The notes under the pieces: generated by a model
Seen by the model: only the letters and a program-made list of their open reading frames with translations
Databases searched by the model: none
Told to the model about the DNA's origin: nothing
In this document: one piece after another, positions 1-9,698 of the stretch
Layout: every line of letters begins with the position of its first letter
Numbering within the stretch: position 1 is the first letter of the stretch
Program-made: the position numbers and the translations under genes
Sequence record: PP777464.1
Source of the DNA: Escherichia phage fEgEco12
Reading direction: 5' to 3' (one strand)
Length of the DNA: 64,000 bases

Positions 1-577
1 AGTAGGCAGAGGAAGTCTGCCGTACTTTGTAGTTTCCAAGCTCCTTTTCCATTTTGCAAATTACATCAAATGTAATCAAAAGTAATCACGCAATGATTAG
101 TACTGAATTATTACTTTCACCTTAATTACAATTACCCTTTTACCCTTCGGGGTAAAATTCCATTACCCCTTGAGGCTCCAGCAAAAAGTTGGTTAGTACT
201 CCATCCTAAATCTCGATCCTAAAAATTTTGGAGTACCTATGAAATAAAAGTTGGATCTTCGAAAGTTGAAATTTACGTTGGGACGTTTATGATTTGTGGG
301 ATATAATGATGTTTGTAATCGGGTAGTTCTCAAGAATATCAGTACTGAAAGATGAAAGAAAGTTATTGACTTTATGATTCAGTACTGTATAATGTTCTAC
401 ATAGGGTGATGAGTTGCTGCGAACAATTCATTTACTCTACCTCCTGTCGTGAGACAGTACAGAAAAGATAGTTCCTCCTGTGGTGGTACATCTTTTTGAA
501 CCTCATATGAAAATCGTAATAACAGTACTGATATTAACAGAATGGTGTCAGTACTGATTTTAATCTAAAGCATTATG

Positions 578-597
578 CCACCAGCTTGTGCTGGTGG
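578..597. other. Perfect hairpin carrying Chi octamer on both strands
   Basis: CCACCAGC-ttgt-GCTGGTGG, 8-bp stem, 4-nt loop. Confidence 0.7.
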
Positions 598-780
598 ATT
601 CCCTCTAACAGTATTCAGTACTACATGATGGTCTTCATCCTCCTAGGGTAACATAGTGAGGGCTATGATGGCAGTACTGAATACTCCCTTTCAAAAGATA
701 GATCTATGGTATAGTACTGACGGATTTTGGGTGTAGTTACCCTGGATGGATTTTGGGCGTAGATATGTCTAGCCCTCCAG

Positions 781-920
781 AAGTCTGGAAGTAAAGATGG
801 CTATCCATCTAGACGGCTAAACGGCTAGATTTCTGGATGGCTGGATGGCTGGATGGCTAGACGTTTGGACGGCTAAACGGCTAGATGGTTACACGTCTGG
901 AAGTATAGACGGCTAAATCA
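781..920. repeat. Iteron-like array
   Basis: CTGGATGG x3 in tandem (833-856); ACGGCTAAACGGCTAGAT x2; flanking AGTCTGGAAGTA copies; dyad AGATGG..CCATCT. Confidence 0.6.
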
Positions 921-1544
921 AAATTTTATTTTGTTTTTTCCAATAGTTCCCCTACCGCGTGGGGATAGTTTCCCCGCAGTATCTGGTGTTAGATTTTTCT
1001 GAATCTGGAATCATTATCTTATAAACTGGGGGCAATGTCAACGGCCTGGACGGATATTTTTAAAAATTTTTTCAGTACTGAATTTTGGGCGTAACTATGC
1101 ACCCGGTGGGCTTGAGTCTTTCTCGACTTGATGGAACTATTATACAGTACTGAAAAAATAAAGCAATACCCTGGAAGCAAAAAAGTTTTAATTAATTTGC
1201 TTGCTATCCTGGGCCGGACTATGGTACTATATTTCAGTACTGAGAAAGTGCGTTTACCTGCTAGGGTGCGGGAGTGTATCCTTTTTTTATATCTTGAATT
1301 TTGGACGGATCTTCCCACCCCCTGGGGTATCCGCTTTCTCGCGTCTATGTAGTAATTATACGCTTTTTCAGGATCAAGTCAATACCTAAAAACAAAATAA
1401 TTGAAAATAATTTAACGCGTTTAAACGGCCTGTAAAGCCCTGGAATGATTGGAATGGTGCAAATGTATAGCTTATGTGTATTAATGCGTTAGAATGCGTC
1501 TGAGGACGTTTTACGGGGTATAGGGATGATTTAGTGGATTGATT

Positions 1545-1631
1545 CAGTACTGAATAATAGTACTCCTATATAGAAAGATAGTTCCCCTGGATGATTGCAG
1601 TACTGAATAATAGTACTCCTATATAGAAAGA
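1545..1631 (+). repeat. Direct repeat, 2 x 34 bp
   Basis: CAGTACTGAATAATAGTACTCCTATATAGAAAGA at about 1545 and 1598. Confidence 0.7.
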
Positions 1632-1662
1632 AAACTATTTTAAAAGTATTTGTAGAAAGTAC

Positions 1663-1690
1663 TTGCACCGTACTGATAAAAGCGTATAAT
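1663..1690 (+). promoter_or_regulatory. sigma70-like early promoter
   Basis: -35 TTGCAC, 16-nt spacer, -10 TATAAT; consensus AAAGTACTTGCAA..GCGTATAATGTTTTACATC recurs. Confidence 0.6.
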
Positions 1691-1703
1691 GTTTTACATC
1701 GAG

Positions 1704-1722
1704 AGCGGGAACACTTCCCGCT
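1704..1722 (+). promoter_or_regulatory. 5-prime UTR stem-loop
   Basis: AGCGGGA-acact-TCCCGCT between -10 box and RBS. Confidence 0.5.
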
Positions 1723-1745
1723 ACACATTAAGAGAGATTAAAACG

Positions 1746-2108
1746 ATGGCGACTCAAATCAATAAAATCATGCTTAACCTGGTAAACTTCCGCGATGAGA
1801 TGAAAGGTCTTCCGGCTGAAACTGTAAAAATTCACATTGCAGCTTATCGGGAACTTATTGCAATGTTGCCGCTTAAGCGTGAACAATACGCCGCTACTTT
1901 GATGCTGGATTCAATGATCCATATAATGATCTCAAATGATTTGACGATGGTTTATCAGTATATGGGCGAAAATTTCGCGGTGTGTAGTAAGCCAGTACCA
2001 GGGATGGCAACAACTGAGGAATTGCACGGCTTAAACTTAAAACAAGATGCATGGGATAATATGCCTCGTTTCCTGGTATGGGCTGACAGTGGCAAAATTT
2101 ACAAATAA
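1746..2108 (+). CDS. hypothetical early protein (120 aa)
   Basis: Promoter, UTR hairpin; track ORF 1689 begins inside the -10 box, first ATG after hairpin used. Confidence 0.65.
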   Translation: MATQINKIMLNLVNFRDEMKGLPAETVKIHIAAYRELIAMLPLKREQYAATLMLDSMIHIMISNDLTMVYQYMGENFAVCSKPVPGMATTEELHGLNLKQDAWDNMPRFLVWADSGKIYK

Positions 2109-2122
2109 GTTTAATAAAGTAC

Positions 2123-2150
2123 TTGCAAACTATGTTTAATGGCGTATAAT
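2123..2150 (+). promoter_or_regulatory. sigma70-like early promoter
   Basis: -35 TTGCAA, 16-nt spacer, -10 TATAAT, then GGGGAA-tag-TTCCCC hairpin. Confidence 0.6.
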
Positions 2151-2201
2151 GTTTTACATCAGGTGGGGAATAGTTCCCCCCTATATAAGAGGATTAAAAA
2201 A

Positions 2202-2441
2202 ATGGCTAAATCAAAAATGTTCTTAGGTCACAAAAACAAAACTCATTGGAATGTAAGCCTGTGGATTAATAACGATGAGGGATTGTATCGGTTGGCCCTG
2301 GACTTTATTGCCGCCAATACTAATCGCAATGATGCGGCCCGTCATATGATGTTATTTTTAGAACAGACTGGACAAGATAAAACACCGGACGGATTCAAAT
2401 ATAGCACTACTGCGATCCGTGCGGCGATGGTTGGAATGTAA
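2202..2441 (+). CDS. hypothetical early protein (79 aa)
   Basis: ATG 8 nt after GAGGA; upstream track start lies in promoter. Confidence 0.65.
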   Translation: MAKSKMFLGHKNKTHWNVSLWINNDEGLYRLALDFIAANTNRNDAARHMMLFLEQTGQDKTPDGFKYSTTAIRAAMVGM

Positions 2442-2527
2442 TAGAATTTATTTAAAGTACTATCATTTTTTTGCGATAGTACTTTATAATAGTGTTTTAT
2501 TCATACACCAACGATAAGGGCAACAGC

Positions 2528-2794
2528 ATGAATATTAAGTATTTTGCGACGCGTGAACAAGCTCGGATCGCCGCACGCCAGGACGGGGCAACGTTTAAAG
2601 ATATGGGCGTACAATCGGAACGTGGTAAACGTTGGGCCATTGTAAAGCGTAGTACCGCCAGATCATTACAGTACTGGTTAGCGGCCTTAAAAAGTCCCGA
2701 TAGTGTATCGCGTCGAGTGGTAGAAATAAAGCTCGACCGAAAGGGCAACCGCGTGACCGTGTACCGTACTAAAAAGATTGCAGTACTTGAATAA
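2528..2794 (+). CDS. hypothetical protein, paralog of 14846-15241
   Basis: Shared KYFATREQARIAARQDGATFKDMG and DRKGNRVTVY blocks. Confidence 0.65.
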   Translation: MNIKYFATREQARIAARQDGATFKDMGVQSERGKRWAIVKRSTARSLQYWLAALKSPDSVSRRVVEIKLDRKGNRVTVYRTKKIAVLE

Positions 2795-2801
2795 AAAGTA
2801 C

Positions 2802-2829
2802 TTGCAAACTATGTTTAAAGGCGTATAAT
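2802..2829 (+). promoter_or_regulatory. sigma70-like early promoter
   Basis: TTGCAA, 16 nt, TATAAT; followed by AGCGGGAAC/TTCCCGC hairpin. Confidence 0.6.
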
Positions 2830-2875
2830 GTTTTACATCGAGAGCGGGAACTCTTCCCGCCTATAACCTGGAGTA

Positions 2876-3112
2876 ATGAAAATGACTAATATGTATATGA
2901 CTGAAGTTAAAACCGTAAAAGATACTACCACGAATAAAACTACTTACTTACAGCGGATCTGTGGTGTATGGCAACGTATCAGCAAATCAAAGTACTTTAA
3001 ATTAACATCATATGCAAACCGTTCGGATTCATTCAGTACTGAAATAAAAGGTAATAAAGTACACCAATACGGCACTTATTATTATTATAGCCTGGACGCG
3101 ATTGCAGTATAA
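2876..3112 (+). CDS. hypothetical early protein
   Basis: ORF track; start 2876 or 2882, the latter better spaced from GGAG. Confidence 0.6.
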   Translation: MKMTNMYMTEVKTVKDTTTNKTTYLQRICGVWQRISKSKYFKLTSYANRSDSFSTEIKGNKVHQYGTYYYYSLDAIAV

Positions 3113-9605: not shown

Positions 9606-9698
9606 TTTTTAAAAAGTACTTGCAAACTATCTCAATAAGCGTATAATGTTTTACATCGAAAGGGGAAACGGTTTCCCCTGGTAATAAGGAAACAAATC

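Follow-up and report, generated by a model that had tools for sequence, protein, structure and literature searches.

Which protein, if any, reads the short tandem repeats in the non-coding left end of Escherichia phage fEgEco12, and what might they be doing there? These repeats were picked out in a 64,000-nt stretch of the phage genome (sequence record PP777464.1), referred to herein as the window, by an original prediction that described them as an iteron-like array with dyad symmetry and suggested origin iterons, packaging recognition sites or transcription-factor sites as their identity. All of the elements listed at that time are real: CTGGATGG occurs as three perfect tandem copies at 833-856 and five times in the window overall, versus 0.99 expected; ACGGCTAAACGGCTAGAT is present twice, at 813 and 869; GTCTGGAAGTA[A/T]AGA is also present twice, at 783 and 895, preceded by A in one case and by C in the other; and the palindrome AGATGG-ctat-CCATCT lies at 795-810. 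However, these elements are only fragments of a single array with an 8-nt period, which spans positions 779-914 and consists of 17 in-phase octamers with no spacers between them. Tandem Repeats Finder reported periods of 8, 16 and 32 for the array, and its identity to itself is 0.59-0.64 at lags of 8, 16, 24 and 32, versus 0.31-0.37 at lags of 4, 12, 20 and so on and 0.15-0.24 at lags not divisible by 4.

With a two-base shift of the register, the units become AGACGGCT, AGACGTTT, AGAAGTCT and GGATGGCT, and match the metbox, AGACGTCT, which is the binding sequence of the host repressor MetJ. In E. coli, MetJ binds tandem, abutting 8-bp boxes with this consensus and with a CT/AG step at the junction; the protein is a ribbon-helix-helix dimer, one dimer occupies one 8-bp box, and neighbouring dimers touch only if their boxes abut exactly. 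Read in the metbox register, units 1-7 of the phage array are, in order, AGAAGTCT, ggaagtaa, AGATGGCT, ATCCATCT, AGACGGCT, AAACGGCT and AGATTTCT, and units 8-17 are GGATGGCT three times followed by AGACGTTT, GGACGGCT, AAACGGCT, AGATGGTT, ACACGTCT, GGAAGTAT and AGACGGCT, giving 13 distinct octamers among the 17. The three identical GGATGGCT boxes correspond to the CTGGATGG triplet and occupy 835-858; their copy number varies between strains, with one to three in relatives. The palindrome at 795-810 is made up of two neighbouring boxes of opposite polarity, AGATGGCT and ATCCATCT, and inverted boxes that stay in phase are expected because the proposed binder is two-fold symmetric. The dyad symmetry claimed for the locus holds for these 16 bp and not beyond them.

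The window was scored with the MetJ information matrix and thresholds of Augustus and Spicer (PMC3228920, Table 3), under which each box has to reach at least one quarter of the consensus score and the whole site at least the consensus score, with a threshold of 12.58 bits. We found one qualifying site in the 64 kb, at 795-914, where 15 consecutive boxes (boxes 3-17) score 108.7 bits. The array boxes carry 3.8-10.7 bits each with a mean of 7.25 bits per box; the single-box threshold is passed by 1.0% of all octamers, and 7.25 bits is reached by 0.1%. As a control, a scan of E. coli K-12 recovered two known operators of 4 boxes each: that of metJ/metB, at 31.2 bits (7.8 per box), and that of metF, at 24.9 bits (6.2 per box). 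The phage boxes are individually on a par with those of these two operators, and their run is three to four times longer. The base frequencies of the window array correlate with the published MetJ matrix at r = 0.88, and a matrix pooled from 11 phage arrays does so at r = 0.91, while the other seven registers give r ≤ 0.03.

In its abutting 8-bp boxes, its base frequencies, its equal per-box information, the CT/AG or CT/GG at its box junctions and, with one exception among the reported hosts, an apparent restriction to lineages that possess MetJ, the array resembles the MetJ operators of E. coli and other gammaproteobacteria. Natural MetJ operators comprise 2-5 boxes and overlap the promoters of met genes. 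The phage array differs from them in having 15 boxes (others have up to 34), in lying in a phage terminal repeat without promoter overlap, and in carrying G for T at position 6 in half of its boxes. Since the array overlaps no promoter, we class it as a MetJ-box array and not as a classical operator. Tandem metboxes are a known type of site, and it is the phage terminal-repeat context and the length that appear to be new; our search of the literature on MetJ with phage genomes or infection, on T5 and on Asteriusvirus, the coverage of which was incomplete, found no description of metbox arrays in phages. Judged from the sequence, MetJ quite likely binds the array in vivo, and it is likely that this binding is a property for which the array has been selected. 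The suggestion of a transcription-factor site array was right in kind, as the units match the boxes of a host factor.

Several other readings of the same letters were rejected. TrpR is also able to bind in tandem, with 8-bp spacing, around CTAG; GCTAG is found throughout the array and the TrpR core ACTAG is absent. A G-quadruplex was discarded because GG recurs every 4 nt only in the three central units and relatives lack it. The octamer is, as had been pointed out, one base away from Chi, the array reading GCTGGATGG with one base more than Chi (GCTGGTGG), but the likeness is coincidental and has no bearing on the array, genuine Chi lying at 578-597. A structured RNA was also rejected, since a search of positions 1-2500 returned no Rfam match at E ≤ 1 and the RNA fold z-score of -4.6 is expected from repeats that are near-palindromic.

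The array lies close to a physical end of the genome. Over its first 3 kb the window has 99% identity to the start of Escherichia phage vB_EcoM_CRJP21 (CRJP21) and 89-99% identity to other Asteriusvirus jumbo phages (the PBECO4/121Q group). Position 1 of the window is also position 1 of the records of CRJP21, E9.1, BF17 and vB_Ec-M-J, and the last of these is annotated with a 21.5-kb direct terminal repeat (DTR) that begins at this shared position. Alignment of the right end of CRJP21 to the window gives a DTR of 1-20993. The array is found about 0.8 kb from the physical left end, inside a 1.74-kb non-coding leader of the DTR, and is present twice, at both genome ends. No open reading frame (ORF) of at least 40 aa overlaps it, and the first annotated gene of the closest relative corresponds to about position 1746 of the window, which agrees with its initial placement in a non-coding left end. 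The end itself (1-21, + strand) reads AGTAGGCAGAGGAAGTCTGCC and includes the inverted repeat GGCAGA/TCTGCC. Genome ends have been determined experimentally (PMC13070987, PMC11273794), and those of phages XbC2, CBB and fENko-Kae01 were mapped independently.

A BLAST search with positions 700-1000 retrieved the array from about 35 Asteriusvirus records and, at roughly 70-75% identity, counterpart arrays from Mimasvirus (XbC2, GAP32, CBB) and Eneladusvirus (BF, the pEa_SNUABM phages, fHe-Yen9-04), where they lie 650-800 nt from the left end. Throughout these three genera, 12-17 units are kept in unbroken register despite many indels in the surrounding leader. In eight Asteriusvirus strains the run of passing boxes ranges from 7 to 15, with all length differences being whole octamers. 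That the 8-bp phase is never broken would follow from MetJ binding, because neighbouring dimers depend on exact abutment for their contact. In a neutral simulation at 30% divergence, 28% of boxes still passed with a mean near -1 bit, versus 81-92% passing at 6.1-6.9 bits in the other jumbo genera; the underlying divergence estimate (roughly 25-30%) is approximate, as the repeats align ambiguously.

The 95 and 67 matching phage records, which represent only about 5-6 independent lineages, name the enteric hosts Escherichia, Salmonella, Erwinia, Serratia, Yersinia, Cronobacter, Pectobacterium and Providencia, together with Vibrio, Aeromonas and, for the one phage XbC2, Xanthomonas. The orders that possess MetJ (Enterobacterales, Vibrionales, Aeromonadales, Pasteurellales and Alteromonadales) cover all of these array-phage hosts but one. 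The more distant Xanthomonas phage XaC1 (1-1540) shares part of the leader and has neither a metbox array nor a clear cluster of Fur boxes.

Arrays are not confined to jumbo phages, as the searches also matched T5-like phages (Demerecviridae) of Vibrio, Aeromonas and Providencia and the T7-like genus Ermolevavirus. Among the T5-like phages, Providencia phage PR1 has 9 boxes near consensus (GGACGTCT, AAACGTCT, AGACGTCC) at 9.8 bits per box, Vibrio phage Pontus has 15 boxes and Aeromonas phage AhSzq-1 has 28. PGT2 (Autographiviridae) carries 9 boxes at 38-109 within its terminal repeat, which its two end copies suggest to be 260 bp long. A pattern scan of IMG/VR added further arrays, with up to 34 heterogeneous boxes on one contig, which is grouped with the T5-like phages; about half of its 54 matches were (GGAT)n-type or single-unit microsatellites, which were removed by unit diversity and bits per box. 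Genuine met operators would not match so strict a pattern. Although built from different units, the arrays of the other phage families converge on the same matrix. The commonest asymmetric unit is of opposite polarity (GGATGGCT versus AGCCATCC) in D254 and Pontus relative to flanking landmarks, and inverted boxes are also found inside arrays; polarity flips of both kinds fit MetJ because a symmetric dimer reads either orientation. The array-bearing phages all have terminal repeats, and in each case the array lies inside the DTR, 38-800 bp from one edge.

The most telling observation on whether the binder belongs to host or phage is that the place occupied by the array can hold other repeats. 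In the window, this slot is flanked on the left by two copies of GGATTTTGGG(T/C)GTAG (721-767, + strand; a third copy lies at 1079-1099), a motif conserved left of the slot in all jumbo genera examined, and on the right by TTCCAATAGTTCCCCTACCGCG (938-959, + strand), which is likewise conserved, in Mimasvirus, Eneladusvirus and Munch-type phages, and serves as the anchor for treating their slots as homologous. Salmonella phage Munch and Klebsiella phage fENko-Kae01 share the leader, including the terminal sequence, a promoter at about 330-360 and a hairpin of Chi sequences, and they keep the slot flanks (ATTTTGGGTGTA on the left, TTTTCCATTGG...CCGCG on the right). Their slot is filled by repeats such as AAATGAGAATAATAATGATTATC, which match up to 16 of the 19 positions of the Fur-box consensus (ten such matches versus about one expected). 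The T5-like phages present a parallel case. In PR1, Pontus and AhSzq-1 the metboxes lie between a block of DnaA boxes and palindrome D and the nick motif CC(T)CTGCGC; in T5 itself (AY587007; 669-838 in L011), where we found no metboxes, the equivalent slot holds copies of direct repeat C (DRC), AAATGAGAATCATTATCATTCG, which also match up to 16 of the 19 Fur-box positions (nine matches versus 0.8 expected). Since metboxes are exchanged for Fur-box-like repeats in two unrelated families, the position is most simply viewed as a slot for host co-repressor-dependent repressors, and is unlikely to be the site of a phage-specific terminase or initiator.

The T5 slot includes the estimated first-step-transfer shear point at 9618, just left of the 7.9% nick (Davison, bioRxiv 10.1101/866236). 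This region, Repeat Region 3 of the left terminal repeat, has long been suspected of holding the injection-stop signal, and the detailed analysis of T5 credits it to DnaA boxes, with no mention of Fur, LexA or MetJ (bioRxiv 10.1101/866236). Palindrome D of T5, ACTGTATAAATATACAGT (531-550 in L011), was also observed to fit the LexA-box pattern CTGT-N8-ACAG, as do its equivalents in PR1, Pontus and AhSzq-1.

Two promoter-like sites face the array in the window. One, TTGACT-16-TATAAT at 366-393 on the + strand, is directed toward the array from about 400 nt upstream and has counterparts at 269-359 in BF, GAP32, Munch and fENko-Kae01. The other, TTGACA-17-GATAAT at 1013-1041 on the - strand, points toward the array from about 100 nt away, and its hexamers are identical and at the same offset in Munch and fENko-Kae01. 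Both are sigma-70-like, match the consensus at 11 of 12 positions, and give convergent promoter-like sites on either side of the slot in two jumbo lineages.

From this arrangement of sites we lean toward the view that the array is a MetJ super-operator working in cis, as a barrier, set up when the co-repressor is present, at the border of the terminal repeat. If the co-repressor S-adenosylmethionine (SAM) were available, about 15 MetJ dimers would cooperatively coat about 120 bp of DNA. The MetJ-SAM-coated segment would sit in the DTR leader between rightward and leftward host-type promoters, where it could gate RNA polymerase arriving from the flanking promoters and possibly also stepwise entry of the genome. 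The slot of the jumbo phages would then be the counterpart of the first-step-transfer boundary slot of T5-like phages. The two are alike in being a non-coding, repeat-dense block at one edge of a long DTR; they differ in that the jumbo leader lacks DnaA boxes, that the array is at the opposite DTR edge by map convention, and that the two-step entry of T5 is only supposed for the jumbo phages. The particular role of a cis barrier is the more tentative part of the proposal, and we put it a little short of an even chance.

A number of points weigh against this proposal. The case for MetJ is drawn wholly from sequence, and the array is neither beside a met gene nor over a promoter. Position 6 is G in half of the phage boxes versus 10% of natural half-sites, so that many boxes would have one weak half-site. 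XbC2, which bears an array, was reported on Xanthomonas, a member of an order without MetJ; an Erwinia phage, however, has 91.6% identity to XbC2 in the leader and 84.6% similarity over the genome. There is no strong promoter close to the array in the T5-like phages or PGT2, which makes a classical operator role unlikely there and means that such a role cannot be general. The PGT2 array, only 38 nt from the leading end, is a poor fit to an injection-stop function. For the jumbo phages, both the leading end and stepwise entry are assumptions, and there is no evident way for a coat of cytoplasmic protein to halt the entry of DNA.

A broader version of the barrier, which we regard as speculative and improbable, is that long-terminal-repeat phages in general build a gate at the repeat edge from boxes of host co-repressor-dependent repressors, that the T5 injection-stop signal is such a cassette, and that Rak2-like jumbo phages use a T5-like two-step transfer. 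The gate would be made of MetJ-SAM or Fur-Fe, with LexA and DnaA boxes in addition in T5-like phages, and, depending on the state of the host, the coat would keep back the next step of entry or processing or let it proceed. In Rak2-like phages, the whole 21-kb repeat with its approximately 50 small early genes would be the first-step DNA, and the leftward promoters at 1041-1013 and 1382-1355 would pull in the remaining genome once the gate had opened.

If MetJ does bind, the array could instead work in trans. The rival that survives best, at a low probability, is that replicated boxes titrate MetJ and thereby de-repress methionine and SAM synthesis and uptake (metK, metE, metNIQ and others), to the benefit of protein synthesis, phage DNA methylation and the supply of polyamines. 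Titration loci such as those of the Fur titration assay, or datA for DnaA, are likewise clusters of binding sites, and they act by soaking up a regulator and not by controlling an adjacent gene. A sink would account for a box number of 5-36 that drifts freely by whole units and goes far beyond what an operator needs, as well as for the variation of position and polarity relative to promoters from family to family. Related jumbo phages are consumers of SAM, as they methylate GATC and CCWGG and have methyltransferase genes of their own. Multicopy Fur boxes are known to titrate Fur, which would also account for the Fur-box swap. However, titration would not require the boxes to be at a terminal-repeat edge, where they are found in three phage families; this fixed position argues for action in cis, and a sink also leaves the conserved architecture of the flanking leader unexplained. 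T5 degrades host DNA within minutes, and with the host DNA lost, de-repression of the host cannot explain the Fur-box slot of T5 and probably not the arrays of T5-like phages.

Less probable is that the array is recognized by a phage protein, such as a small terminase subunit, a ribbon-helix-helix regulator or an end-binding protein, and serves in packaging or end recognition, its likeness to metboxes being coincidental. The array always lies within 40-800 bp of a DTR boundary, and the flanking GAAGTCTGG (780-788) resembles the terminal GGAAGTCTGCC (11-21). Plasmid ribbon-helix-helix proteins bind short tandem repeats in either polarity. In the centromere-like arrays of omega (heptads), ParR/parC and ParG/parH, where dimers of the MetJ/Arc fold coat the repeats cooperatively, the binder is encoded beside its sites and has a partition ATPase as its partner; the DTR was found to contain no genes of this kind. 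A tblastn search of 50,697 phage records with E. coli MetJ found no phage-encoded homologue, three matches being records that carry host DNA, and a Pfam search of the 50 DTR ORFs found no MetJ, Arc or other ribbon-helix-helix domain. This screen for candidate proteins covered 64 kb of about 375 kb. The PHROG families listed for the DTR ORFs are without assigned function.

A phage binder would also require three unrelated families each to possess a protein of MetJ-like specificity, and their loci share only one promiscuous gene. The only strong protein match between the loci is the DUF7249/phrog_871 gene at 2202-2441, whose 79-aa product is 75% identical to that of a PGT2 gene (L031 2123-2362) and 95% identical to those of genes of 150-kb coliphages. 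Homologues occur in Synechococcus, Ralstonia and rV5-like phages and do not track the arrays, and the protein was rejected as a shared array partner; the gene appears to be a widely exchanged early gene. A match to the MetJ matrix in one register only is hard to ascribe to chance. Finally, a terminase site would not tolerate replacement by Fur-box-like repeats as seen in Munch and fENko-Kae01, where the homologous leader and end are kept, a test made by comparing leaders, ends and flanks and not the terminases themselves. The packaging recognition site first suggested is therefore unlikely in the form of a terminase-specific site, and the array may have a looser accessory role in packaging near the cut site. 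In the latter respect it recalls phage lambda, where the host protein IHF binds site I1 within cosB, beside the terminase cutting site; I1 is a single bending site at a fixed distance, unlike a long array at 38-800 bp that is proposed to depend on a co-repressor.

Origin iterons, the first of the identities suggested for the repeats, are highly improbable. In their favour are the tandem repetition in non-coding DNA and the AT-rich stretch that adjoins the array on the right (915-945), but XbC2 and BF do not conserve this stretch. The units are 8 bp long rather than 17-22 bp and abut without helical-phase spacing, positions 1-3000, and with them the leader, contain no DnaA boxes, and no initiator, helicase-loader or T5 A1/A2-like domain was found by Pfam among the 50 DTR ORFs. 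The element is, moreover, duplicated at both genome ends, and Fur-box-like repeats replace it in sister phages. Equally little weight can be given to a functionless minisatellite produced by replication slippage: close relatives do differ by whole units and about half of the IMG/VR pattern matches are trivial repeats, but the units of the array are heterogeneous, genera that are about 70% identical still hold the phase and the quality of the boxes, which neutral drift would have destroyed at that distance, the differing units of other families converge on one matrix, and CTAG, although avoided elsewhere in the genome (75 in the window versus 201 expected), occurs four times in the array.

The leader and the repeat contain further features beside the array. 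A hairpin of reverse-complement Chi and Chi, CCACCAGC-ttgt-GCTGGTGG, lies at 578-597, on the stretch that separates the array from the physical end. It is conserved in vB_Ec-M-J, 121Q, SHEFM2K, Munch and fENko-Kae01 with differing loops (ttgt, acaa, ttaa), at 484-503 in the compared sequences L024 and L023 and at 588-607 in L001. In PR1, Chi and its complement are also found between the array and the DTR edge (L015 2742, 2901). On the + strand of the window, Chi (GCTGGTGG) occurs at 590, 6681, 10868, 11378, 12328, 13577, 15925, 17823, 19402 and 19625, which places ten copies, all in different sequence contexts, inside the 21-kb terminal repeat and none in the next 43 kb, with approximately 0.2 expected per strand per 64 kb; the complement occurs at 578, 6619 and 60313. 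Chi acts with a known polarity toward RecBCD, and the orientation of these copies would be the one met by RecBCD entering at the right genome end.

At the ends themselves, TATC(T/C)(T/G)(T/C)TC is how the independently mapped left ends begin in Mimasvirus, Eneladusvirus and Munch-type phages alike, and those of Asteriusvirus begin instead with AGTAGGCAGAGGAAGTCTGCC. GAAGTC at +12 to +18 is common to the Asteriusvirus, Mimasvirus and Eneladusvirus ends, and its complement, GACTTC, is held by TAGCGACTTCG just beyond the right DTR edge of the window. The palindrome CAGTACTG occurs 63 times in the window versus 0.7 expected, in coding and non-coding DNA alike, and is densest in the terminal repeat (40 in 1-21000 and 10 in 1-1700); the early promoters, too, have AGTAC ahead of their -35 hexamer (AAAGTACTTGCA or AAAGTACTTGAC).

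An element of about 50-75 nt at approximately 1290-1350 (TTTTGGACG...CCCACCCCCTGGGGTATCCGCTTTCTCGCGTCTATGTAGTAATTATAC) is shared at 82-91% identity by Asteriusvirus, XbC2, Munch-type phages and fENko-Kae01, in a part of the leader that is otherwise barely alignable; the copy in BF and fHe-Yen9-04 is more diverged. It adjoins a strong leftward promoter-like site at 1382-1355 and is preceded on the + strand by a terminator-like hairpin at 1263-1282. The two small DTR genes inspected, which are the first two, each have a promoter of their own, AAAGTACTTGCA-N17-TATAATGTTTTACAT, with a GC-rich hairpin and then a ribosome-binding site behind it (1656-1730 and 2118-2200). Past the DTR edge at 20993, small genes that overlap tightly come after a single promoter at about 21033-21062. 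Upstream of the right terminal repeat of CRJP21, an unannotated stretch (L012 3150-4890) contains about nine tandem gene copies of approximately 190 nt with starts of ATGCA(T/C)AAAGAATACTAC or similar, and looks like a family of paralogues rather than non-coding DNA.

Beyond T5, the nearest structural parallel lies in T7 and T3, where short repeats beside the terminal repetition, the SRL and SRR arrays, were reportedly described by Dunn and Studier in 1983. These are likewise runs of 7-8 bp repeats beside or inside a terminal repeat, with a function that is unexplained; they differ from the present array in their irregular spacing, in their word (CCTAAAG) and in having no host factor assigned. 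Metbox arrays in jumbo myoviruses, T5-like siphoviruses and one T7-like podovirus, interchangeable with Fur-type boxes, open the forty-year-old puzzle of the T5 injection-stop repeats and of T7-type short-repeat arrays to simple experiments, and provide a concrete annotation label for repeats that GenBank records leave blank or call spurious ORFs. If MetJ truly coats these arrays, a virulent phage would carry the longest known run of host metabolic repressor sites, placed at the end of its DNA, and phages with terminal repeats would generally exploit host nutrient sensors, for SAM and for iron, in a way not previously recognized.

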